DNA of 64,000 nucleotides from Bacteroidota bacterium (GCA_029547705.1 JAKPOU010000042.1:25271-89270), one strand, 5' to 3'. Counted from the first letter of the stretch, positions 52,610 through 64,000 are shown. A program made the numbers and translations. Notes: generated by a model not told the origin, from the sequence alone.

Positions 52610-53359
52610 ATGAAAATTCTGGTTTGCATCAGCAATGTTCCCGATACCACTACAAAAATCAGATTTACCGAGGGGAACACTTCAGTTGACACTTCAGGCA
52701 TCCAGTGGGTTATCAATCCCTGGGATGAGCTGTCCCTGACGCGTGCCCTTGAACTGAGGGATGACCCGTCCAGCGGGGTTAAGTCCGTTACAGTTATCCA
52801 TTCGGGACCGGCCTCTGCTGAGCCCGTCATACGGAAAGCTCTTGCCATCGGGGCTGATGATGCGGTGAGAATTGATTCACCCTCCGGTGATGCATACAGT
52901 GTGGCGGCAGGAATAGCGGAAGTTGTCCGCAAGGAACAGTATGACATTATCCTGTGCGGGGTGGAGTCAAGTGATTACAACGGATCGATGGTTGGGGGAA
53001 TGATAGCTGAATTCCTTGAAATACCTTCCGTGTCAGGTATTTCGGAGTTAAAGGCAGAAGGCGGGAATGTGACCATCACACGGGAGACTGACGGCGGAAA
53101 GGAAATTGTGAGCGTTCCTTTGCCCTTTACCGGGATTGTACAGAAAGGCATAGCGAAGGAACCCAGAATTGCTGCAATGCGGGGAATAATGATGGCCCGG
53201 AGCAAGCAGATCAGGGTTTATGAGCCCGGGCCGGAGGAAGCTCTTACCGGAATAGAAGTCTTTGAAAAACCCCCTGCCAGGGGAGCGTGTAAATTTATTG
53301 ATCCCGATAATCCGGAACAGCTCATTGATCTGCTTCAGAACGAGGCAAAAGTCATTTAA
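52610..53359 (+). CDS. etfB: Electron transfer flavoprotein beta subunit
   Basis: Contains MKILVCISNVPDTTTKI and NPWDELSLTRALEL. Confidence 0.9.
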   Translation: MKILVCISNVPDTTTKIRFTEGNTSVDTSGIQWVINPWDELSLTRALELRDDPSSGVKSVTVIHSGPASAEPVIRKALAIGADDAVRIDSPSGDAYSVAAGIAEVVRKEQYDIILCGVESSDYNGSMVGGMIAEFLEIPSVSGISELKAEGGNVTITRETDGGKEIVSVPLPFTGIVQKGIAKEPRIAAMRGIMMARSKQIRVYEPGPEEALTGIEVFEKPPARGACKFIDPDNPEQLIDLLQNEAKVI

Positions 53360-53386
53360 ACGGGAATATAAATAATCCAAATATAT

Positions 53387-54349
53387 ATGTCAGTTCTTGT
53401 ATATACTGAAAACCAGGACGGGAGATTCAAGAAGCATATTTTTGAACTGGTCTCCTATGCATCGGAAACGGCAAAAATGCTGAATTGCTCTGTTACTGCC
53501 CTGTCAACCGGAAAAGTTGAGGAATCCGAATTGATGAAGCTGGGGAACTACGGAGCCGGCCGGATAATATCGGTGGAAAACAGCCTTCCCTCAGGCCTTG
53601 ACAACAGGGCCTATTCATATGTTGTATCCGAAGTTGCCGGTAAAACAGGTGCCACAGTGATCATTCTCTCCGACAACAACACCGGCAAGGCCATTGCACC
53701 CGGCCTGTCTGTCAGGCTTAAGGCTGCCGTCGGATCCGGAGTGAGCCGCTTGCCGCTATCAACGGAGCCTTTCGTTGTCTATAAAAGGACATTCTCCGGC
53801 AATGCATATGCACATGTCGTCCTGAAAACCCCGGTCAGGATCATCACCCTTGCCCGGAACTCGTTTTCCTCTATTGAATCAGCCGGCAATCCTTCCATTG
53901 AGAAAATGGAAATCCCGGTTGACGGGGCGCTTGTCACGACTACCATAAAGGAGGTGATCAGACAATCAGGAAGGATGCAGCTGTCTGATGCCGACATTGT
54001 GGTATCGGGCGGAAGGGGAATGAAATCGCCGGATAACTGGGCCCCGCTGCTGGAACTGGCCGAAAGCCTGGGAGCAGCGACCGCTTGTTCAAGACCTGTG
54101 TCGGATGAGGGCTGGAGACCGCATGAGGAGCATGCCGGACAAACCGGGAAAATCATTGCGCCCAACCTGTATATTGCCGTTGGCATTTCCGGGGCAACAC
54201 AGCACCTGGCCGGTGTCAGTTCCTCCAAATATATAGTCGCGATCAATACCGACAAGGACGCTCCCATATTTGAAGCTGCACAATACGGCATAGTAGGTGA
54301 TGCAATGAAAATTCTCCCGAAACTGGCAGAAACAATTAAAAAGAGATAA
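53387..54349 (+). CDS. etfA: Electron transfer flavoprotein alpha subunit
   Basis: The C-terminal FAD segment reads VVSGGRGM..CSRPVSDEGW..QTGKIIAPNLYIAVGISGATQH. Confidence 0.9.
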   Translation: MSVLVYTENQDGRFKKHIFELVSYASETAKMLNCSVTALSTGKVEESELMKLGNYGAGRIISVENSLPSGLDNRAYSYVVSEVAGKTGATVIILSDNNTGKAIAPGLSVRLKAAVGSGVSRLPLSTEPFVVYKRTFSGNAYAHVVLKTPVRIITLARNSFSSIESAGNPSIEKMEIPVDGALVTTTIKEVIRQSGRMQLSDADIVVSGGRGMKSPDNWAPLLELAESLGAATACSRPVSDEGWRPHEEHAGQTGKIIAPNLYIAVGISGATQHLAGVSSSKYIVAINTDKDAPIFEAAQYGIVGDAMKILPKLAETIKKR

Positions 54350-54428
54350 AAAACGGATTTTACAGATTCCGCAGGTTTTACAGATGTTTTCCTGTTATTC
54401 TGAATATCCGCAGTACTGATATTCGCTT

Positions 54429-56516
54429 ATGGTTCGTCAGATTATTTTCGCAATAAGCCTTCTGATAACGATTGCTGTCTTTTCCTGGACTGCCGGCAGG
54501 ATTATCAGCTATTTCAGGCTTACAAAACCCGGCTACAAGGTTCAGAATCCCGGAAAAAGATTTTTGCTGATGATGAAGGTTGCCTTCGGGCAGACCAAAA
54601 TCTTCAGGCAGCCCCTGACAGGATTGCTGCATGCACTGGTGTTCTGGGGCTTCTGCATAATTATCTTCGGAAGCATTGAAATGGTCATTGACGGGCTTTC
54701 AGGAAGTGAAAAAGCCCTGAAAGTCCTGGGGCCGCTGCATGATTTCCTGATGGCTGCAGGTGATGTTTTTGCTGTAATGGTGGCAGTGTCGGTAATAGTT
54801 TTCCTGATCCGGCGGATCTTTATGCATATCCCGAGGTTTGAAGGCACGGAGATGAAAAGGCGCTCACACAGGGATGCAAATATTTCCCTTTCACTGATAC
54901 TGTTGCTGATGCTCTCTCTTATTGCCATGAATACGGGTTATACCGGCATGAAAAGGCTGTCGGGCGAAGAGATTGCAGGTGTTTATCCCGTGAGCTGGTT
55001 TCTTTCCGGCCTTTTCCCGGCCGGAAGGACGGAAACATTCCGGATCATTCATGAGATATCGTGGTGGACGCATATCCTGCTTATTTTCTTTTTTGCAAAT
55101 TACCTTCCATGGTCAAAGCATTTCCATGTATTCCTGTCGGTACCGAATGTCTTCCTTTCCAGGCTTGAGCCCCGGGGCAAGCTGTCAAACATGGACAGTA
55201 TCACCAGGGAGGTCAGGCTGATGATGGACCCTGAAACGGCCTTTGCCGCAACATCCCCCGACACTGTGCCGGAACGTTTTGGAGTCAGGGATGCTGAGGA
55301 TGTTACCTGGAAAAATTACTTTGATTCCCTTTCGTGTACGGAATGCGGCAGATGTACTTCCGTATGTCCGGCAAATATTACCGGCAAGATGCTGTCGCCC
55401 AGAAAGGTGATGATGGATCTCCGGGCCAGGATGAAGGAAAAGGGTCCCATGATGATAAGAAACGGGAAGGACTACAACGATAACAGATCTCTCGTGAGGG
55501 ATTATATCAGCGGGGAGGAACTGTGGGCATGCACAACATGCAATGCATGTGCAACGGAATGTCCGGTGAATATTGACCAGCCTTCGCTGATAGTGGACAT
55601 GCGCAGGTATCTTGTTCTGGAAGAAGCATCTGCCCCGGGCGAACTGAAGGCGGTATTCAGCAATATCGAGAATAACGGAGCTCCGTGGCAGTATTCAGCG
55701 GAAGACAGGCTTAACTGGAGCAATGGCCTTGATTTTAAAGTGCCGGTAATGGCAGATCTTCATGCAGGGAATGAGAAGCCGGAATACCTTTTCTGGGTGG
55801 GTTGTGCAGGCGCGTTTGACGACAGGTACAAGAAAGTTGCCAGGGCTTTTGCAACTATACTGAATCATCTGAATGTAAGCTATGCCGTTCTGGGCAGGGA
55901 GGAAACATGTACGGGCGATCCCGCAAGGCGTGCCGGAAATGAAATGCTTTTCCAGATGCAGGCACTGCAGGTGATCAGCCTGCTCAGGGATTACGGCGTA
56001 AGAAGGATAATCACCATCTGCCCGCATTGCTACAACACTTTCAGGAATGAATATCCCGATCTGGGCGGAAATTTTGAGGTTATAAGCTATCTCGGATTCA
56101 TCCGCAGGCACATTGATGAAGGACGGCTTGTTCCCGCGTCCGGCAGAGCTGACGGGAGAGCTGTGGTCACCTATCATGATCCCTGCTACCTGGGCAGGGC
56201 CAATGGTCTGTATGATGATCCGCGCATAATACTTCAGAAGCTGGGCAATGACATTGAGGAGATGGGCCGTAACCGAAGCCGTGCACTGTGTTGTGGCGCC
56301 GGGGGGGCACAGATGTTTAAGGAAGCCGAAAAAGGGAAAAAGGAAATCTTCATTGAACGGACGGAGGAAGCTCTCCGGACCGGGGCTCCCGTAATTGCAA
56401 GCGCATGCCCGTTCTGTATGACCATGATCACAGACGGACTGAAATATAAAAACAGGGAGGATGAGATAAAAAACCTGGACATAGCGGAACTGGTCGCACA
56501 GTCGCTCGGATACTGA
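54429..56516 (+). CDS. Membrane-anchored (Fe-S)-binding oxidoreductase with two CCG domains (HdrD/GlpC-like; candidate Etf:menaquinone oxidoreductase)
   Basis: The N-terminal ~230 aa form about 6 TM helices. Two ferredoxin motifs follow (CTECGRCTSVCP, CTTCNACATECP), then Cys-rich CCG repeats (CPHCYNTF; CCGAGG..CPFCMTM). Confidence 0.75.
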   Translation: MVRQIIFAISLLITIAVFSWTAGRIISYFRLTKPGYKVQNPGKRFLLMMKVAFGQTKIFRQPLTGLLHALVFWGFCIIIFGSIEMVIDGLSGSEKALKVLGPLHDFLMAAGDVFAVMVAVSVIVFLIRRIFMHIPRFEGTEMKRRSHRDANISLSLILLLMLSLIAMNTGYTGMKRLSGEEIAGVYPVSWFLSGLFPAGRTETFRIIHEISWWTHILLIFFFANYLPWSKHFHVFLSVPNVFLSRLEPRGKLSNMDSITREVRLMMDPETAFAATSPDTVPERFGVRDAEDVTWKNYFDSLSCTECGRCTSVCPANITGKMLSPRKVMMDLRARMKEKGPMMIRNGKDYNDNRSLVRDYISGEELWACTTCNACATECPVNIDQPSLIVDMRRYLVLEEASAPGELKAVFSNIENNGAPWQYSAEDRLNWSNGLDFKVPVMADLHAGNEKPEYLFWVGCAGAFDDRYKKVARAFATILNHLNVSYAVLGREETCTGDPARRAGNEMLFQMQALQVISLLRDYGVRRIITICPHCYNTFRNEYPDLGGNFEVISYLGFIRRHIDEGRLVPASGRADGRAVVTYHDPCYLGRANGLYDDPRIILQKLGNDIEEMGRNRSRALCCGAGGAQMFKEAEKGKKEIFIERTEEALRTGAPVIASACPFCMTMITDGLKYKNREDEIKNLDIAELVAQSLGY

Positions 56517-56616
56517 TTGTGCTGCGGACCGGTTTCACGGAATAGCCGGGCAGTCCCGGGGGTAAACTGAATTAAATCCTGCATTCCGGAGGAAATGCAA
56601 CAAAAAATAATCAATA

Positions 56617-58395
56617 ATGGAAATCAAGAAAAATCTTAAGAGCGGTGAGTTTCTTGTGGCTGATACAGATGCCGCAGATGTGTTCATACCGGAAGAATTC
56701 AATGAGGAACAGCTGATGATTGCCCAGTCGTGCCGCGATTTTCTCGCTATGGAGGTCAGTCCTCAGATGGCTGAGCTTGAGAAAGGCAACCGGGAACTGA
56801 TGAAAAGCATACTCAAGAAATCAGGAGAACTCGGACTGATGGGTGTTTCGATACCGGAGGAGTTCGGAGGATTCGGACAGTCATTTGTTACCCAGATGCT
56901 TGTTGCAGAAGCCAGCGGGGCGGGATATTCATTCTCAGTTGCCTTTATGGCGCACTGCGGTATCGGGACACTCCCCATACTCTATTACGGCAACAGGGAA
57001 CAGCGGGAAAAATATGTTCCGAAGCTTGCCAGCGGTGAGCTTATCGGATCCTATTGCCTTACCGAACCCGGGGCCGGAAGCGATGCCAATGCCGGAAAAA
57101 CATCTGCCACACTGTCTGAAGACGGTAAATATTATATACTGAACGGACAGAAGATGTGGATAACAAATGCAGGATTTGCCGACATTCAGATTGTGTTCGC
57201 CAAGATAGACAATGACCGTGTTCTGAGTGCTTTCATTGTTGAAAGCAGTTATCCCGGCGTGGTTATCGGACCGGATGAACAGAAAATGGGTATAAAGGGT
57301 TCGTCAACCTGCCAGATTTATTACAATGATGTAAAGGTTCCGGTGGAAAACCTTCTCGGGAAAAGGGGAGAGGGCTTTCGCATAGCCCTGAATATCCTGC
57401 ATATGGGCCGTATAAAGCTTGGGGCAAATGTTCTCGGCAGTGCCAAGAAGGCCATAGAGGACTCGGTAAGATATGCAAATGAAAGGAAACAGTTCGGTGT
57501 TTTGATCTCATCATTCGGGGCAATCAAGCATAAACTGGCCGAACAGGTGATCAGGCTCTTTACCTGCGAATCTGCCGTGTACCGTGTAAGCAGGGATATT
57601 GATGACCTGACAGATACGCTCCTGGCAGACTGCGGTGATACGGGACGTGCGTCAATTGAGGCAATAGGCCATTATGCGGTGGAAGCTGCGATCCTGAAGG
57701 TTGCAGGTTCGGAAATGCTCGATTATGTTTCGGACGAGGCTGTGCAGATATACGGAGGAATGGGTTATTCGGCAGAGACGGATGTTGAGAGGTCTTACCG
57801 TGATTCCCGTATCAACAGGATCTTTGAGGGGACAAATGAAATCAACAGGCTTCTTGTTTCCGATACCGCAATGAAACGGGCAATGAAGGGCGATTTCGAC
57901 CTCTTCGGCAAGGCAGCCGGCCTGTACGCCGGGCTTGATAACCTGCTGGAAACAATGGCAGAAGGCGATGACTATTACGGTGAAAAATCCACATACACAG
58001 GGAATTTCAAAAAAGCCATACTCATATGTATTCACGGTGCCGTTGAGCGGTATGGAAGAACACTTGTACATCAGCAGGAAGTACTGAACAATATTGCCGA
58101 CATGATCATTGAAACCTATTTGTCCGAATCCCTGAGACTCAGGGTTCAGAAACTGGAATCGCTGAAAAGTGACCTGACGGTTTACAGGGATATACTGGAT
58201 GTCAATATTTATGATGCCGCCAGCAGGATACGCAAATCGGCACACGACGCCATATATGCCTTTGCAGAGGAAGGGCAGGCAGAAAACCTTGTAAGAGCTG
58301 CCGATACACTGACCGCGGTAAGAGGTGTGAATGTCAAATCGGCAAGAAGAAGAATCGCTGACAAGCTGATTGAGGACAATGCCTATAAATTCTGA
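56617..58395 (+). CDS. Acyl-CoA dehydrogenase (long form with C-terminal extension)
   Basis: Contains CLTEPGAGSDA, KMWITNA and QIYGGMGYS..ERSYRDSRINRIFEGTNEI. Confidence 0.9.
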   Translation: MEIKKNLKSGEFLVADTDAADVFIPEEFNEEQLMIAQSCRDFLAMEVSPQMAELEKGNRELMKSILKKSGELGLMGVSIPEEFGGFGQSFVTQMLVAEASGAGYSFSVAFMAHCGIGTLPILYYGNREQREKYVPKLASGELIGSYCLTEPGAGSDANAGKTSATLSEDGKYYILNGQKMWITNAGFADIQIVFAKIDNDRVLSAFIVESSYPGVVIGPDEQKMGIKGSSTCQIYYNDVKVPVENLLGKRGEGFRIALNILHMGRIKLGANVLGSAKKAIEDSVRYANERKQFGVLISSFGAIKHKLAEQVIRLFTCESAVYRVSRDIDDLTDTLLADCGDTGRASIEAIGHYAVEAAILKVAGSEMLDYVSDEAVQIYGGMGYSAETDVERSYRDSRINRIFEGTNEINRLLVSDTAMKRAMKGDFDLFGKAAGLYAGLDNLLETMAEGDDYYGEKSTYTGNFKKAILICIHGAVERYGRTLVHQQEVLNNIADMIIETYLSESLRLRVQKLESLKSDLTVYRDILDVNIYDAASRIRKSAHDAIYAFAEEGQAENLVRAADTLTAVRGVNVKSARRRIADKLIEDNAYKF

Positions 58396-58721: not shown

Positions 58722-59102
58722 ATGGAATCTGGAAATATGCGGAGAATTCTCGGAGCATTGCTTTTTGTTTTGCTGACAGGCATAATCATTATATCATCAT
58801 GTGAACGGCATACCTTTCTGGTAGAAACAGTTGATCCCGTCGATTCTGTTTATTTCGGGGCGGTGATTCAGCCTCTTCTTGAAAAAAAATGTTCAGCCTG
58901 TCATGGCGGGTCAAAGGATCCTGACCTTAGGGCAGACAAATCCTACGAATCTCTGGTAACGGGGGGGTATGTCACGCTTCCCGCCGAGGAGAGCAGGCTG
59001 TACCGCAAGGTTGTTTCCAGCGGTCATTCTGCCTATACCCTGCCCGAGGAAAAACTGAAGATACTGTACTGGATCGCCCAGGGAGCAAAGAACAATAAAT
59101 AG
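58722..59102 (+). CDS. Monohaem c-type cytochrome lipoprotein (PSCyt1-like domain)
   Basis: Lipobox IISSC and a single CSACH. Also contains FGAVIQPLLEKKCSACHGG..LVTGGYV..LYWIAQGA. The start may be M6 at 58737. Confidence 0.7.
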   Translation: MESGNMRRILGALLFVLLTGIIIISSCERHTFLVETVDPVDSVYFGAVIQPLLEKKCSACHGGSKDPDLRADKSYESLVTGGYVTLPAEESRLYRKVVSSGHSAYTLPEEKLKILYWIAQGAKNNK

Positions 59103-59113
59103 TAGAAACCATA

Positions 59114-59992
59114 ATGAAACCCGATCAAATGAAAAGAACCATATCAATTCCGGTGTTGTTTTTGTTTATGGCCTCCCTCTTTGCACAGGAAGAGGGTCAG
59201 CCTGCCGCGGAATCCAAACCCGTAAGATTTATTTTTGAAACAGGCCTGCTTATAGATAACCAGACTATTGCCACTCCCTTCAAGGGGGGGCTTGAATTTG
59301 AAATTCATCACAGGTTCAGCCTTATAGAGAACATTCATAATCTGTTCGGCATTTATGGTGCCGCAAATACAAGGCTGGGGCTCAATTATGGAATTTCTGA
59401 CAGGCTGATGGCCGGAATTGGTACCACCAAGGATTACAAACTGCAGGATTTCCAGTGGAAATACCTGGTACTGCGTCAGACAGAAGATGACAAGATGCCG
59501 GTATCGCTTTCCTATTACGGGAACATGGTTCTGGATCTGCGGGAAGATGCCGCTTTCGGTCCGGAAGCATCCTACAGGCATATACACAGGCTTTCATATT
59601 TTACCCAGTTCATTGTTGCCCGCAAAATGAGCGAAAAGATTTCGCTGCAGATAGCACCTTCCGTCATTTATTTCAATTCCGTCCCGAGATACAGCGATAC
59701 CGAAGGCTATAAAAATTTCAACCTGGGACTGTCAGCCGGCGGAAGGGTGAATTTTTTCGGAAGCCATTCACTTCTTTTTGAATATGATCAGCTTCTGACA
59801 AAGCAGGACCTTGATGTTCAGCCCAGGCCCAATCTTTCACTGGGCTGGGAAATCGGAACGGCAACCCATTGCTTCCAGTTGTTTGTGGCGAATTATTCCC
59901 AGATAATCAATCAGAGAAATCTCGTGTTCAACCAGAATGATTTTGCAGGCGGTGAATATCTTGTCGGATTCAACATTACAGTAAGACTTTAA
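59114..59992 (+). CDS. Small outer-membrane beta-barrel protein (DUF5777-like)
   Basis: Signal peptide ..MASLFAQ. Contains GGLEFEIHHRF and GLNYGISDRLMAGIG, with alternating strands and a C-terminal ..LVGFNITVRL. The DUF assignment is from memory. It begins 11 nt after the previous gene. Confidence 0.55.
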   Translation: MKPDQMKRTISIPVLFLFMASLFAQEEGQPAAESKPVRFIFETGLLIDNQTIATPFKGGLEFEIHHRFSLIENIHNLFGIYGAANTRLGLNYGISDRLMAGIGTTKDYKLQDFQWKYLVLRQTEDDKMPVSLSYYGNMVLDLREDAAFGPEASYRHIHRLSYFTQFIVARKMSEKISLQIAPSVIYFNSVPRYSDTEGYKNFNLGLSAGGRVNFFGSHSLLFEYDQLLTKQDLDVQPRPNLSLGWEIGTATHCFQLFVANYSQIINQRNLVFNQNDFAGGEYLVGFNITVRL

Positions 59993-60003
59993 TACTTCTC
60001 AGG

Positions 60004-61005
60004 ATGAAAATGCTCTTTGCCGGTGTGTTAGTTGCTGCAGCCTTCGGTTTTTATACTGAAGCCCGGGCCCTGTCCGGAAGAGCTGATTCAGACCCTGGCA
60101 CCGCGGATACACTCGCTTTTGTATCTCCTTTCATGGAAGATAATGAAAGATGTTTCAAATGCCACGGTCAGGGTAAGTACGAATATGAAAATGAACTGCT
60201 TGGCACGACGGTGAAAGCCCTGATGTGTCCGGACCGGATAATCAGGCGTGAGGATTTCTATATTTCCAATCACAGGAGTTTCAGCTGTACCGACTGTCAT
60301 TCCAGTGATTATGTTGTTTTCCCTCATCCGGGAGAGTTGAGGATGGAACTTAAGTTCAACTGCCTTGATTGCCACGGCGGTGACGAGACCTATTCCATTT
60401 TCAGTTTTGAGATGATAGAGGAAGATTACATGGAAAGTGTGCACTATAAACTTGAGGATGAGGGCTTCAGCTGCTGGAAATGCCATGATCCCCATACATA
60501 CAGGATCAGTATGAGGGACAGCAAGAACCTGAAGGAGACGATTCTTTATGACAATAACATCTGTCTTTACTGCCATTCAGACTATACCCGTTTCCAGATC
60601 CTTTCCGACCGCGAAGAAGTGAATTTCCTGAAAACTCATGACTGGCTTCCGAATCAGGCTTCTCATTTCAGAAGCGTAAGATGTATAGAATGCCATACAC
60701 AGATAAGCGACAGCATACTCGTTTCACACCTGGTTCTTCCCAAGGACAGGGCAGTAAAGCTGTGCAATGAATGCCACTCGAAAAACTCATTGCTGATGGC
60801 ATCGCTTTACAAGTTCCAGTCAATGGAGCAGCGAAGGGGCGGATTCCTCAACGGCATAATAATGAATGAATCCTATGTTATAGGCGCAAACCGCAATGCC
60901 TATCTCGGAACTCTCAGTCTGGCCATCTTCGGTGTTGTGATTCTGGCTATTGTTATACACGTGATATTCAGGATAAAAACCAAAGCAAACTTAAAAAAGG
61001 GCTAA
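60004..61005 (+). CDS. Heptahaem c-type cytochrome with a C-terminal membrane anchor
   Basis: Seven CxxCH motifs: CFKCH, CTDCH, CLDCH, CWKCH, CLYCH, CIECH and CNECH. It has an N-terminal signal peptide and a C-terminal TM helix LGTLSLAIFGVVILAIVIHVIF. Confidence 0.85.
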   Translation: MKMLFAGVLVAAAFGFYTEARALSGRADSDPGTADTLAFVSPFMEDNERCFKCHGQGKYEYENELLGTTVKALMCPDRIIRREDFYISNHRSFSCTDCHSSDYVVFPHPGELRMELKFNCLDCHGGDETYSIFSFEMIEEDYMESVHYKLEDEGFSCWKCHDPHTYRISMRDSKNLKETILYDNNICLYCHSDYTRFQILSDREEVNFLKTHDWLPNQASHFRSVRCIECHTQISDSILVSHLVLPKDRAVKLCNECHSKNSLLMASLYKFQSMEQRRGGFLNGIIMNESYVIGANRNAYLGTLSLAIFGVVILAIVIHVIFRIKTKANLKKG

Positions 61006-61006
61006 A

Positions 61007-61651
61007 ATGTACTTGTATCCGCTGGGGATAAGATTATGGCATGCCTTGAACGCAATTCTGATAATCATTCTGATTATTACAGGCATCAGCATGCAGTATA
61101 CCGACAAGGGCAACCTGGTGTTCATCATTGATTTTGCAGCTGCCGTAAAATGGCATAATATAACCGCCATAATACTTGTAATAAGCTATATTTTCTTTCT
61201 GATACTGAACATTGTTTCAGGAAATGCAAAGTACTACAGGATAAACCGGAATAATTTGTTTTCAGATCTCGGAAAACAGTTCAGATACTATGTTTCAGGA
61301 ATGTTCAAAGGGGAAAAGCATCCCTTTCCCGTCAGCATGGAAAGCAAATTCAATCCCCTTCAGAAACTCACTTACGTTCTGATAATGTATGCGGGGCTTC
61401 CTCTTATAATAATCTCGGGTTTCGGCATGATGTTCCCGGAAATAACCATAGTGAAACTTTTCGGTGTAAGCGGATTCATACTGACTGATATTTTACATAT
61501 AACAATGGCATTCCTGGTGACGGTTTTCCTGGTCATACACATTTATACCTGCACCCTTGGGACAAAGCCGACCTCGCTTTTCAGGGGGATGATTACAGGA
61601 TACCATGAACCGGAAGAAGAATCACCGGAAGAAGTATCACCGGAAAAGTAA
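61007..61651 (+). CDS. Membrane cytochrome b (PhsC/FdnI/HydC-type, Ni/Fe-hydrogenase b-type cytochrome fold)
   Basis: Starts 1 nt after the heptahaem gene. TM helices carry candidate haem ligands: His in LWHALN, KWHNIT and the pair DILHITMAFLVTVFLVIHIY (14 residues apart). Confidence 0.75.
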   Translation: MYLYPLGIRLWHALNAILIIILIITGISMQYTDKGNLVFIIDFAAAVKWHNITAIILVISYIFFLILNIVSGNAKYYRINRNNLFSDLGKQFRYYVSGMFKGEKHPFPVSMESKFNPLQKLTYVLIMYAGLPLIIISGFGMMFPEITIVKLFGVSGFILTDILHITMAFLVTVFLVIHIYTCTLGTKPTSLFRGMITGYHEPEEESPEEVSPEK

Positions 61652-61792: not shown

Positions 61793-62212
61793 ATGAAAAA
61801 AAACAGAACCATTTTAGCAGCAACAGCACTTTTTGTTACGGGCATAATGCTCATTTCGTTGAATCTGAATGCCCAGGAGAGGCAGGCGAAGCCATGGCCG
61901 GTGCCTGACGAATACAAGAACATGAAGAATCCCGTTGCAGCCGATGCAGCCAGTATAAAGACAGGAGGAGTCCTTTACACGAAGTTCTGTGCATCCTGTC
62001 ACGGCAAAACCGGGCTGGGTGACGGAGTAAAGGCAAGGGCCCTGAAGGATTTTGCAGGGGATTTCTCCGGTGAATACTATCAGAATCAGACCGACGGGGA
62101 GCATTTTTACAAGACAAAGGCCGGAAGAGGCGAGATGCCCAAGTATGAGGGGAAAATGTCGGATGAGGATATCTGGCATGTGGTAAACTACATGCGGACC
62201 TTCAAGAAATAA
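61793..62212 (+). CDS. Class I monohaem cytochrome c
   Basis: Signal/anchor helix, CASCHGKTGLGDG and a distal Met in GRGEMPKY. Confidence 0.85.
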   Translation: MKKNRTILAATALFVTGIMLISLNLNAQERQAKPWPVPDEYKNMKNPVAADAASIKTGGVLYTKFCASCHGKTGLGDGVKARALKDFAGDFSGEYYQNQTDGEHFYKTKAGRGEMPKYEGKMSDEDIWHVVNYMRTFKK

Positions 62213-62327: not shown

Positions 62328-63521
62328 TCAGAATACAGCGATCGTATTATCCAGCAGTTTCTTTATATAGGGGTAATTATGTACACCCATGCTTGCATCC
62401 CTGTAGATCAGCTGGTAGTTGATTATAGCACCGAACTGTGCGTTTGTGAGTTCCGGGAAAGGCTGTGACAGCTGTCCGGGATTATTCCAGTAGCCTGTCG
62501 GATTCGCCCCTGCATCATAAATATCTATATAACCGTGATAGTTACCGTCTGAGGGATCTTTCTGCAGAATATCATGTCCGTTACCGATTGCATTGATTTT
62601 GGATGCAAGTTCCTTCAGTTTTGTGGATACATAATTCCTGGTTTCTGTAAGTAAGGGATTTGTGGCACTCATTCCGGAATGGCAGTTTGTTGTATTGCAG
62701 CCGTTGTAATTGCCTGCCGGATTGAAAGAGTGACCTCCGGCCTGGCCTGTGGGTGAAGCCATGTGGCATGATGTGCAGGAAGCCTTTGTCACATGTTCAG
62801 AGTTTGAGTATCCTGATCCGAATTCGATTCCCCCGACTCCTGCAGCCATGGCGCCATGTGTTCCGTAATGCACGCCTGTCCTGTAGCTGACAGGTGACAT
62901 ATCATATTTTGCGGCCGGTTCCGTGGTCAGGCGGGCGTAATCGATGAGGGCACCGTTTGAAGATGTTACAGGCATGGGCTGGTGGCATTTAGCACAAAGA
63001 TTTCCCGAACTCTTCTGGAAGTTGATCGTTTTTGCCCCGCCCCACATCGTCATAGGCACCGCTGCCGTTGTTGAAAGGGGAAAAAACTCGGTGGCACTGT
63101 ACCCTGTGTGAAGGGAACTGTGACAGGTGAAGCAGTTTATGCTTCCGGGAAATGATAAGGCGGATGCACTTGCCGCATAGTTGTTCACGTATCTCGACGG
63201 ATTCGAGGGATTCGGGGTAATCGTGGCAGGAGTGTTTTTGCTGATCACATCCAGAAAACCCTTGTGGGTATGGCAGGGAATACAGCCTGCCATGGTGGCA
63301 TGATCATGAGCAGTTCCCCTGAAATGCTGTGAATATCCGTATTCAAGGCTTTTTGCCAGTACCACATTGCTGTTGTGACATGACTTGCAGGTTTCATTGA
63401 TATCCTTTCCGTCGGCCCCGTCCTTGCCATCAGCACCCGTAGGCCCCATCGGTCCTTCACATGAGGCCAGAATCAACCCCGCCATGCTTATTAAAAATAA
63501 AAAACGCTTCGCCTTGTTCAT
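62328..63521 (-). CDS. Multihaem c-type cytochrome lipoprotein with a collagen-like Gly-X-Y N-terminal linker
   Basis: Lipobox LILASC. Six Gly-X-Y triplets follow (GPMGPTGADGKDGADGKD). Five CxxCH motifs (CKSCH, CIPCH, CFTCH, CAKCH, CTSCH) plus one CX4CH (CNTTNCH, 62679-62699). Confidence 0.85.
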   Translation of the reverse strand: MNKAKRFLFLISMAGLILASCEGPMGPTGADGKDGADGKDINETCKSCHNSNVVLAKSLEYGYSQHFRGTAHDHATMAGCIPCHTHKGFLDVISKNTPATITPNPSNPSRYVNNYAASASALSFPGSINCFTCHSSLHTGYSATEFFPLSTTAAVPMTMWGGAKTINFQKSSGNLCAKCHQPMPVTSSNGALIDYARLTTEPAAKYDMSPVSYRTGVHYGTHGAMAAGVGGIEFGSGYSNSEHVTKASCTSCHMASPTGQAGGHSFNPAGNYNGCNTTNCHSGMSATNPLLTETRNYVSTKLKELASKINAIGNGHDILQKDPSDGNYHGYIDIYDAGANPTGYWNNPGQLSQPFPELTNAQFGAIINYQLIYRDASMGVHNYPYIKKLLDNTIAVF

Positions 63522-63729
63522 AATCCTTTCCTTTATATGGTTTTTAATGCGGATGCAATCTACGAAAACACAGTGTTATCTTTTCAGGGCTTCCTATGCT
63601 ATTTACAATAGAGATCAATGATAGATTATATCCGCACCGCTGATTTATGTCAATAAATATATTGATATTTGCCGGAATAACGAACTGATTCCGGTATGTA
63701 ATTATTCCGGTACTGTTAATTTGATCAGA

Positions 63730-64000
63730 ATGAGCGGAAACATTTCAGCAAGCACATGCAGCGGCAGCCTGACGGAATGGAAGAACTTCAGGACCCTCAG
63801 TCCCGGTGAACTTGATTATGTCGGTCAGAACAGGTTTGAAGCAGTCTACAAGCGCGGGGAAATAGTGATCAAGCAGGGTGCTCCCGCTTCCAATGCCCTG
63901 TTTCTTGTTTCAGGGCTTGCCAAGACATACATGGAAGGCCCGGGCGGGAAAAACTTCATAATAAGCATTGACAAGCCCGGGGTAATGCTCACCGGCCAGG
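63730..64000 (+). CDS. Crp/Fnr-family transcriptional regulator, N-terminal cNMP-binding-like domain (runs off the window edge)
   Basis: Not in the ORF track because it is open-ended. The ATG at 63730 gives MSGNISASTCSGSLTEWKNFRTLSPGELDYVGQNRFEAVYKRGEIVIKQGAPASNALFLVSGLAKTYMEGPGGKNFIISIDKPGVMLTGQ. Confidence 0.75.
   Translation, partial: MSGNISASTCSGSLTEWKNFRTLSPGELDYVGQNRFEAVYKRGEIVIKQGAPASNALFLVSGLAKTYMEGPGGKNFIISIDKPGVMLTGQ

Follow-up and report, generated by a model that had tools for sequence, protein, structure and literature searches.

We analysed a stretch of 64,000 nucleotides from a Bacteroidota bacterium (GCA_029547705.1 JAKPOU010000042.1:25271-89270), called the window in what follows, and concentrated on a gene on its minus strand at 62328..63521. 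The open reading frame (ORF) and its translation give a hexahaem lipoprotein cytochrome of 397 amino acids, all features of which lie on the minus strand. The original prediction, made from the sequence alone, had described it as a lipoprotein in which a collagen-like stalk of six Gly-X-Y triplets leads into a domain with five CxxCH motifs and one CX4CH motif; this description was confirmed, with all of the earlier coordinates exact. The same protein, identical in sequence, was found on many metagenome contigs.

The protein begins with a signal peptide (MNKAKRFLFLISMAGLILAS, residues 1-20, 63462..63521), whose form, a K/R-rich n-region followed by a hydrophobic h-region, is kept across the homologs. 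Next come the lipobox cysteine Cys21, at the end of L-A-S-C, and Glu22 (63456..63461); by recomputed coordinates, the codon of Cys21 is 63459-63461. As for a substrate of signal peptidase II, the n-region reads MNKAKR, the h-region reads FLFLISMAGLI, and L-A-S-C21 fits the pattern [LVI][ASTVI][GAS]C. In a set of 125 diverse full-length relatives, on which the conservation figures below are based unless stated otherwise, Cys21 is retained in 124 and Glu22 in 107, and the latter is also present in 50/50 close relatives. Gly23 (50/50) and Pro24 (49/50) are similarly constant in the close family, and the wider family carries CEGP or CTKEGP. From what is generally known of these pathways, the protein would be exported by Sec, lipidated at Cys21 and supplied with haem in the periplasm.

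The Gly-X-Y tract

Translation of 63402..63455 confirmed the six uninterrupted triplets (GPMGPTGADGKDGADGKD, residues 23-40), which read GPM-GPT-GAD-GKD-GAD-GKD and start directly after Glu22. A scan of all six frames of the 64 kb brought up a single further run of four or more triplets, which has four. In related loci totalling 1.31 Mb, ORFs of at least 80 residues contain 82 such runs, and 79 of them fall in ORFs with four or more CxxCH motifs, that is, in homologs of the present protein; a Gly-X-Y start as a general habit of the lipoproteins of these genomes is ruled out for the 1.3 Mb examined. No tandem repeat was detected at the tract in the DNA, and the coding sequences of the two GADGKD units show six differences in 18 bases, all of them synonymous. 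A hypervariable slipped-strand repeat was also considered, and was ruled out by this lack of a DNA repeat together with the identity of the protein in many samples.

To follow the tract through the family, we measured the linker between the lipid Cys and the first haem Cys in 225 analysable relatives. All 225 linkers consist of a short lead (E in 168, TKE in 20), a single Gly-X-Y run without breaks, 2-16 triplets long and with lengths that peak at 3 and 6, and a tail (four residues in 162, one residue in 46). Pro occupies 35% of the X positions and Asp 38% of the Y positions, and aromatic residues are not among the twelve commonest at either. An alignment of 50 sequences shows Cys21, Glu22, Gly23 and Gly38 as invariant, with insertions and deletions that comprise whole triplets and are confined to the middle of the tract, both ends being constant. 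The mature forms of all full-length close homologs start with C-E-G-P-x-G and have about 2-9 triplets in total, and in nearly every full-length cluster representative the lipobox Cys is followed by a Gly-X-Y tract. Because its length changes by whole triplets only, as the homolog alignment called for by the original prediction now shows, the tract behaves as expected of a spacer or stalk. It is a genuine conserved element and a hallmark of the family, beyond chance. The opposite view, in which the tract arose by chance or as a low-complexity insertion peculiar to one strain and CX4CH is a coincidence with no function, draws weak comfort from a single fact, the missing match of the window protein to the Pfam Collagen model, and we give it a negligible probability. 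Conservation already refutes it: the tract is kept family-wide in hundreds of homologs from two phyla, the CX4CH columns (see below) are kept in 100% of the diverse relatives, with CxxCH as the alternative spacing, the DNA shows no repeat, and the identical protein comes from many samples.

What structure the tract adopts is a separate matter. The window protein has no match to Pfam Collagen (PF01391) at E≤1, because its tract offers 18 residues to a model of 60 positions; the model is matched at E≤0.01 by 6 of 50 close relatives, and relatives with long tracts exceed its gathering cut-off of 27.2 bits (P0131, 51.4; P0210, 113.6). These homologous tracts of true collagen length, together with the unbroken periodicity and the presence of Pro at X, favour a triple helix. 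It is also possible, though we consider it doubtful, that the tract is a monomeric tether, extended in a polyproline-II-like manner or flexible, which gives the same protein in the same context reach and nothing more. Such a tether would account for the 47 of 225 members with only 2-3 triplets and for the short modes, since these tracts are too short for a self-stable helix, and it would agree with the missed Pfam Collagen match, with the coil that the AlphaFold2 (AF2) model makes of the tract, and with the closest solved relative, OcwA, which is a mixture of monomer and dimer with no trimer. However, a tether needs no Gly at each third position, yet all of the linkers are unbroken, and we know of no other structure that demands it. 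Nor would a tether explain the whole-triplet insertions and deletions, the placement of Pro at X as in true bacterial collagens, or the homologous tracts of 25-45 triplets above the Pfam Collagen gathering score. Since some members have only 2-3 triplets, the haem domain must be able to do without a triple helix. Unsupported, a helix of six triplets that lack hydroxyproline would have only marginal stability; given this and the shortest members, a helix, if formed, would need nucleation by the head domain or by tethering at the membrane.

In known bacterial collagen-like proteins, such as Scl1 and Scl2 of Streptococcus, BclA of Bacillus, Bucl8 of Burkholderia and Lcl of Legionella, the tract is a trimeric stalk between an anchor and a head. 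The present family resembles them in its uninterrupted Gly-X-Y, its preference for Pro at X and its charged triplets, e.g. GKD. Those proteins have tens of triplets and non-redox heads (adhesin, spore-fibre, efflux), whereas the family described here has 2-16 triplets that start at a lipid anchor and lead to a multihaem head. The original prediction was not aware of such an architecture having been described, and we likewise found no literature that joins collagen-like tracts with multihaem or c-type cytochromes; searches on collagen-like together with multihaem, c-type cytochrome, lipoprotein or Bacteroidota, or on the DUF5777 family of a neighbouring gene product, returned nothing relevant.

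The haem domain and its relatives

Searched on its own, the window protein gave weak, generic cytochrome matches in Pfam, NCBIfam and PDB, with nothing significant in PDB. A profile of 144 diverse members (A2) was therefore the basis of the comparison with PDB sequences. It found OcwA of Thermincola potens (6i5b) at E 9.6e-19 and 6qvm, 'Multiheme cytochrome cf', at E 1.2e-17, followed by Geobacter lovleyi NrfA at E 4.6e-12, many chains of NrfA and octahaem nitrite reductases at about 1e-9 (to 1e-8), and MtrC (6r2q_C) at E 3e-7. An AF2 model from the diverse 144-sequence alignment, a monomer with no haems in the model, reached a predicted local distance difference test (pLDDT) score of 93.1 and a predicted template modelling (pTM) score of 0.88, and supersedes an earlier model from 50 close homologs (pLDDT 73.7, marginal fold matches). 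In this monomer, which is silent on a trimer, the Gly-X-Y tract is a coil with pLDDT 63-69. Of 28 Foldseek matches to the model, 27 are multihaem cytochromes of the NrfA family (OcwA, NrfA, octahaem nitrite reductases, HAO, MccA), and the best is OcwA, with a probability of 1.00 and an E value of 1.6e-3, but a template modelling (TM) score of 0.40. On the profile evidence, the haem domain is a shortened relative within the OcwA/NrfA multihaem superfamily.

The alignment order equates haems 2-6 of the window protein with haems 5-9 of OcwA and haems 1-5 of NrfA, and leaves haem 1 as an extra N-terminal site. All 12 Cys of the haem sites and the six proximal His are at least 99% conserved. Site 1 is CKSCH (residues 45-49, 63375..63389), with its Cys and His columns at 100%. 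Site 2, CIPCH (residues 80-84, 63270..63284), stands at the aligned position of OcwA haem 5 and NrfA haem 1, where the profile reads CAxCHSxxGF against CLKCHSAEAY of OcwA; by its order in the alignment, haem 2 would be the equivalent of these active-site haems. Site 3 is CFTCH (residues 130-134, 63120..63134), followed by the conserved His138, and is aligned with CQVCHASH of OcwA. Site 4 is CAKCH (residues 176-180, 62982..62996), which lies within CHQPM and is identified by its conservation in the relatives. Site 5, CTSCH(M) (residues 249-253, 62763..62777), is 100% conserved and aligned with CVDCHM of OcwA.

The sixth site is the CX4CH variant CNTTNCH (residues 275-281, 62679..62699), which is aligned with the last CxxCH of OcwA. 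The original prediction had made much depend on its conservation, and Cys275, Cys280 and His281 turned out to be 100% conserved in the diverse relatives. The spacing at these columns is CxxCH in 94 relatives, CX4CH in 27 and CX3CH in two, and among close homologs CX4CH is present in 112 of 120. As the motif is conserved, and relatives have either this spacing or CxxCH at one and the same place in the alignment, a sixth haem is very probably attached here, at a site formed by a two-residue expansion of the canonical CxxCH. CX4CH (CXXXXCH) is an established variant for the attachment of haem c, known from tetrahaem cytochrome c3. The present protein shares this spacing with cytochrome c3, but has no c3 fold, and here the variant is a lineage-specific expansion, given the CxxCH of most diverse relatives.

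Six His outside the haem motifs (66, 138, 218, 243, 264 and 381) are at least 97% conserved. We had taken them as proof that all haems are bis-His coordinated, and withdrew this: the count fits equally well six bis-His haems, or five bis-His haems with distal ligands and an open haem 2 with one pocket His, as in OcwA. In OcwA, whose haem roles have been described, an HH motif lies over the open distal face of haem 5 (PMC6703420). In the alignments to OcwA and 6qvm, the distal-pocket motif corresponds to His218-Tyr219 of the window protein (62865..62870); the first of these residues is kept in 99% of the relatives, and the column of the second has His in 62 and Tyr in 55 of them. Haem 2 may thus be open and of catalytic type, able to reduce small molecules too.

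Beyond the last haem site, a C-terminal helical region (residues 289-396, 62334..62657) carries a GVHNY...LL motif. The AF2 model places helices at 289-311, 360-375 and 383-396, which resemble the helix bundle of NrfA and OcwA, and the region aligns with 'DGSNGVHNYDLAVKLL' of OcwA.

Next, we compared the protein with the members of the superfamily in turn. OcwA, a cell-surface terminal reductase (PMC6703420), is the best match by both profile and fold. The last five haem sites occur in the same order, and the two share CxxCHM, C-terminal helices with DGSxGVHNY..LL, and an H-H/Y motif at the pocket equivalent to that of NrfA haem 1. OcwA differs in its nine haems, with a c554-like tetrahaem part at the N-terminus that the window protein lacks, and in its Gram-positive source, the lack of a lipobox and a collagen-like tract, and its monomer/dimer state; the identity in the Foldseek alignment is about 16%. 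The second match, 6qvm (681 residues), covers profile positions 94-366 and shares a GVHH-PQ motif and a C-terminal SHGIHN helix, but has many more haems, a Gram-positive source, no lipid anchor and no collagen-like tract. From the matching protein length and name, we take it to be OmhA, a surface cytochrome of Carboxydothermus ferrireducens with 11 haems; about 681 residues follow from the OmhA gene coordinates in a paper that does not contain the PDB code (PMC7829351).

NrfA and the octahaem nitrite reductases share with the window protein the haem order, CxxCHM and long C-terminal helices with G-x-H-N/A-P. The window protein, unlike them, has a further haem at the N-terminus and carries a collagen-like tract behind a lipid anchor. 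Its sequence lacks CXXCK, the motif of the active-site Lys haem of NrfA, and reads CIPCH at the corresponding site. Nor are the catalytic Tyr and His of NrfA conserved in a distant alignment to the G. lovleyi enzyme, the Tyr position being Arg in 95% of the family and Met here, with no His at RHPE. As CXXCK is missing and the catalytic residues are unmatched, the protein is not an NrfA proper. The residue that matches the catalytic Tyr in the alignment is Met183, the last of CAKCHQPM (176-183). Met is present here and in the closest relative (P0001), and Arg (CHQPR) in 116 of 118 close homologs with a recognised motif and in 119 of the diverse relatives, so that the site shows a lineage-specific change at a nearly invariant position.

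The MtrC and OmcA proteins of Shewanella are likewise multihaem outer-membrane lipoprotein cytochromes, which reduce extracellular acceptors; for the window protein, such a location and acceptor would be points in common. They differ in their staggered-cross fold, as opposed to the probably NrfA-like fold here, in having ten haems instead of six, and in a short, non-collagen linker. The window protein matches neither of the MtrC/OmcA family models PF22113 and TIGR03507, and for this reason is not an MtrC/OmcA. PF22113 (MtrC/MtrF domain II/IV) is matched at E≤0.01 by 34 of 50 relatives, with sub-threshold to moderate scores. By analogy, the protein would work most like the terminal cytochromes of the OcwA and MtrC/OmcA type.

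Genomic neighbourhood and distribution of the family

Upstream and divergent (63730..64000, plus strand) is the 5' part of a gene for a Crp/Fnr-family regulator, which runs off the end of the window; the full regulator gene in a homologous locus (L001) matches cNMP_binding and HTH_Crp_2 in Pfam. On the other side, convergent with the cytochrome gene, lies a set of plus-strand genes. The nearest encodes a monohaem cytochrome c of 139 residues (61793..62212), assigned by Pfam and synteny, and is followed by a cytochrome b561 of the HydC/FdnI/PhsC type (61007..61651; Ni_hydr_CYTB, E 1.4e-26; synteny), which also matches the NCBIfam PhsC-like model at E 6.6e-52, under the curated cut-off, and is presumed to be the quinol-oxidising membrane subunit. 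Further on are a 333-residue heptahaem cytochrome with seven CxxCH motifs and a C-terminal transmembrane helix (60004..61005), kept in synteny and with weak NrfB/DmsE-like matches in Pfam and NCBIfam, a DUF5777 beta-barrel protein of 292 residues (59114..59992; Pfam DUF5777, E 4.3e-68; synteny), and a small lipoprotein monohaem cytochrome of 126 residues (58722..59102; lipobox ISSC, haem motif CSACH; synteny).

A 426-kb metagenome contig with the identical protein extends this view. Upstream and divergent are the Crp/Fnr regulator and a fused ResB-CcsA (CcsBA) cytochrome c synthase, and the convergent downstream order is again cytochrome c, cytochrome b561, heptahaem cytochrome, DUF5777 barrel and 126-residue lipoprotein cytochrome. 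Beyond this island are genes for an acyl-CoA dehydrogenase, an Fe-S (iron–sulfur)/CCG oxidoreductase and EtfAB. In the window, the corresponding plus-strand genes at 52610-58395 encode EtfB, EtfA, a 695-residue Fe-S/CCG oxidoreductase and a 592-residue acyl-CoA dehydrogenase, and they flank the island in many species. This arrangement suggests that electrons from acyl-CoA oxidation may enter the quinone pool and exit through the cytochromes of the island. We also considered whether CcsBA could be a lyase dedicated to CX4CH, as NrfI is to CXXCK. This is unsupported, as the locus (L037) tentatively matched to P0056, a relative with six CxxCH motifs, also has CcsBA.

The same neighbours were present in four other genomes and, by tblastn, in nearly all of 80 species-level loci with enough flank; the regulator is linked to the cytochrome gene in most of the approximately 80 species loci. 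In eight distant members, of which six have enough flank for the full set, the genes are rearranged and co-directional, in the order Crp, hexahaem cytochrome, small cytochrome, DUF5777, cytochrome c, heptahaem, cytochrome b. Since the linkage outlasts this rearrangement, it is good evidence of shared function. The small lipoprotein cytochrome and the DUF5777 gene (58722-59992) are adjacent in nearly all loci, including the rearranged ones, and the pair recalls, as an idea only, a split version of fused cytochrome-porins such as Cyc2. No MtrAB-type porin-cytochrome pair was found in the island, and no catalytic terminal reductase or oxidase in it could be recognised with Pfam and NCBIfam, except possibly the hexahaem protein itself. 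NrfC- and NrfD-like genes are inserted in some loci; they are absent from the locus of the window and from many others.

Most homologous loci (L004-L087) carry a 16-bp palindrome, TGTTA-N6-TAACA, about 54-91 bp upstream of the start codon, and in several other loci it lies about 116-131 bp upstream. In the window a degenerate remnant is left (CCCTGAAAAGATAACA, approximately 63586..63601, minus strand), of which only the right half survives. The palindrome is probably the operator of the adjacent Crp/Fnr regulator, for which it is the candidate site. A few loci have an FNR-like TTGAT-N4-ATCAA box further upstream.

The family is large. A word-indexed search found 587 homologs at E≤1e-3, the top 120 at 51-87% identity, and a profile search of 1.84 billion cluster representatives found at least 1200 clusters (50% identity) at E≤1e-3, with 193 at E≤1e-30. 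The named sources among the top 120 are Bacteroidales metagenome-assembled genomes (MAGs), and the close homologs as a whole come almost entirely from Bacteroidales/Bacteroidota MAGs, where they are annotated as 'hypothetical protein' or 'nitrate/TMAO reductase-like tetraheme cytochrome c subunit'. The source names of ten distant relatives are all 'hypothetical' or absent. A branch of high guanine–cytosine content belongs to Gemmatimonadota/Longimicrobiales, with some members named 'collagen-like protein' by NCBI; by these homologs, the architecture extends to Gemmatimonadota and hence is not specific to Bacteroidota. Two loci of the family (L067, L075) carry the labels Draconibacterium or Prolixibacteraceae. 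Near-identical members also occur in MAGs labelled Bacillota, Methylococcaceae, Chloroflexota or Chitinophaga (L026, L030, L042, L047), three of them on short contigs (2.7-8.6 kb) and one, L047, on 28 kb; these labels are most likely binning or labelling errors and not a real distribution.

Several relatives depart from the common plan. Five (P0131, P0145, P0146, P0151, P0210) have no lipobox and combine an ordinary signal peptide with 8-45 triplets and the same hexahaem domain; the region before their tract, of at least about 120 residues, starts QAPxxxSYQAVVRD and has no Pfam match. In one such case (L088:8001-9929) the gene adjoins a type IX secretion-tail gene and a CcsBA gene. A protein of 797 residues (P0198) has a lipobox, a tract of 8 triplets and the hexahaem domain, after which come a bacterial Ig-like domain and another multihaem region, with 13 CxxCH motifs and one CX4CH in total. 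In Gemmatimonadota, one locus (L091:1-1491) has the heptahaem-type cytochrome and cytochrome b fused into 665 residues, with further multihaem cytochromes nearby, a fusion that presumably resembles the CbcL type quinol oxidase of Geobacter; the context of another (L090) was uninformative.

Cellular location and proposed mechanism

The location of the protein depends on how its mature N-terminus is read. The surface-export signal of Bacteroidota lipoproteins has been defined experimentally as C-X-K-(D/E)2-X, for which a net-negative stretch at +2 to +6 would be an equivalent, and in the published tests neither KD alone nor a single acidic residue was sufficient for export (PMC5080379). With one acidic residue and no Lys, the mature N-terminus C-E-G-P-M-G fails this pattern, which bears out the original prediction that Glu22 is only a weak match; as the signal is unmatched, the default site by that rule is the periplasmic face of the outer membrane. 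Distant relatives start C-T-K-E-G, a partial match to C-X-K-(D/E)2. A surface location is favoured by the homology to OcwA, a surface metal reductase, and by the linked outer-membrane barrel and second lipoprotein cytochrome. Bacterial collagen-like domains are, moreover, typically surface structures (Scl1/2, BclA, Bucl8).

One could also suppose that the start C-E-G-P-x-G, with or without the rest of the tract, is itself a sorting or export signal, or a docking element for the DUF5777 barrel, and that any spacing is a by-product. The invariant or nearly invariant Glu22, Gly23 and Pro24, the CEGP or CTKEGP of the wider family, the partial likeness of CTKEG to the known signal, and a tract with constant ends and a variable middle would all suit this idea. 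We nevertheless hold it to be improbable: a signal does not need a variable count of further Gly-X-Y units, the lipobox-less relatives keep and even lengthen the tract behind a different N-terminal domain, and the single acidic residue was insufficient in the published export tests (PMC5080379).

A further possibility, which we rate as rather unlikely, is that the protein points into the periplasm and serves there either as a relay or as a reductase of the NrfA kind, which acts at an open haem 2 on a soluble substrate such as nitrite, hydroxylamine, nitric oxide or a sulfur oxyanion. Its electrons would then come from an NrfB/C/D-like module that oxidises quinol, and the stalk would hold it in place across the periplasmic space. 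This agrees with the unmatched export signal and with the homology to the NrfA superfamily, and His218-Tyr/His219 is aligned with the open haem 5 pocket of OcwA, which itself reduces nitrite and hydroxylamine. The NrfC/NrfD-like genes of several loci, the weak NrfB matches of the heptahaem cytochrome, and the upstream Crp/Fnr-type regulator with its conserved operator-like palindrome point the same way. The missing CXXCK and the unconserved catalytic Tyr/His positions, however, argue against an NrfA-like enzyme, and OcwA, which scores best among the solved relatives, reduces metals at the cell surface and is not a dedicated enzyme; 6qvm may be another such protein. NrfC/D are missing from the window locus and many others, and the outer-membrane barrel and the second lipoprotein cytochrome would be superfluous for a purely periplasmic enzyme. 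This proposal and that of a monomeric tether address different aspects, and overlap each other and parts of the model set out next.

The model that we propose is that the protein is the outer-membrane-tethered, probably trimeric distal member of a chain that carries electrons from quinol to the outside; as a whole, we see it as evenly poised between right and wrong. After Sec export, the protein would be cleaved and lipidated at Cys21 and loaded with six haems in the periplasm, for which the adjacent CcsBA is the obvious haem synthase. Three chains would wind their Gly-X-Y segments into a short triple helix, so that a trimer with 18 haems stands on a rod of about 5 nm with three lipid anchors in the outer membrane. 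The rod length, which would determine how far the haems lie from the membrane, is estimated as 18 residues × 0.286 nm = ~5 nm, and 2-16 triplets correspond to ~1.7-14 nm. Electrons would pass from menaquinol to cytochrome b561 and the heptahaem cytochrome, on to the monohaem cytochromes, to the DUF5777 barrel with the small lipoprotein cytochrome, and finally to the hexahaem protein, which would probably hand them to an acceptor outside the cell, as OcwA does. Trimers occur in the superfamily (HAO, MccA).

Several points weigh against this model. For the rod, these are the missing Pfam Collagen match of the window protein, the coil in the AF2 monomer, the members with 2-3 triplets, which are too short for a helix, and the marginal stability of six triplets. 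For the destination and the partner proteins, the N-terminus does not carry the known export signal, the TM-score to OcwA is low, and the NrfC- and NrfD-like genes of some loci, next to a protein of the NrfA superfamily, resemble a periplasmic nrfABCD-type system. In addition, the carriers of the close family are all uncultured, with no physiology to draw on.

A bolder version of the outward-directed model goes further, and we regard it as unlikely. In it, these proteins would be the first redox proteins on a collagen triple helix, trimeric 18-haem 'electron antennae' on lipid-anchored rods at the cell surface, which act as the terminal reductase of a hitherto unrecognised pathway of extracellular electron transfer, composed of cytochrome b561 with the heptahaem cytochrome, the DUF5777 barrel and lipoprotein cytochromes. 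As part of the same proposal, the rods would be adjusted in steps of 0.86 nm per triplet, to ~1.7-14 nm in the lipoprotein forms and ~39 nm in the relatives with 45 triplets. Export would follow a route other than the known Bacteroidota signal, and the pathway would have a wide distribution among the uncultured Bacteroidales and Gemmatimonadota of digesters, fens and sediments.

Judged by its homologs and their loci, the window protein represents a large uncharacterised family of uncultured Bacteroidota and Gemmatimonadota, together with a candidate island for electron transfer. Members of both phyla abound in anaerobic digesters, wetlands and sediments. Good descriptions of extracellular electron transfer exist for Shewanella, Geobacter and a few Gram-positives, but not, to our knowledge, for these two phyla. 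The size of the family, its homology to surface reductases and the conserved island make a concrete, testable candidate for such a pathway. The names that its members now carry ('hypothetical', 'collagen-like protein', 'NapC/NirT') are uninformative or misleading, and could be replaced by a consistent annotation. If the tract is only a tether, its strict Gly-X-Y periodicity still calls for an explanation. If the rod of our model is real, a collagen helix that serves as a length-tunable spacer for a multihaem domain would be a new use of the collagen motif, and a natural design for placing redox centres at set distances from the membrane.

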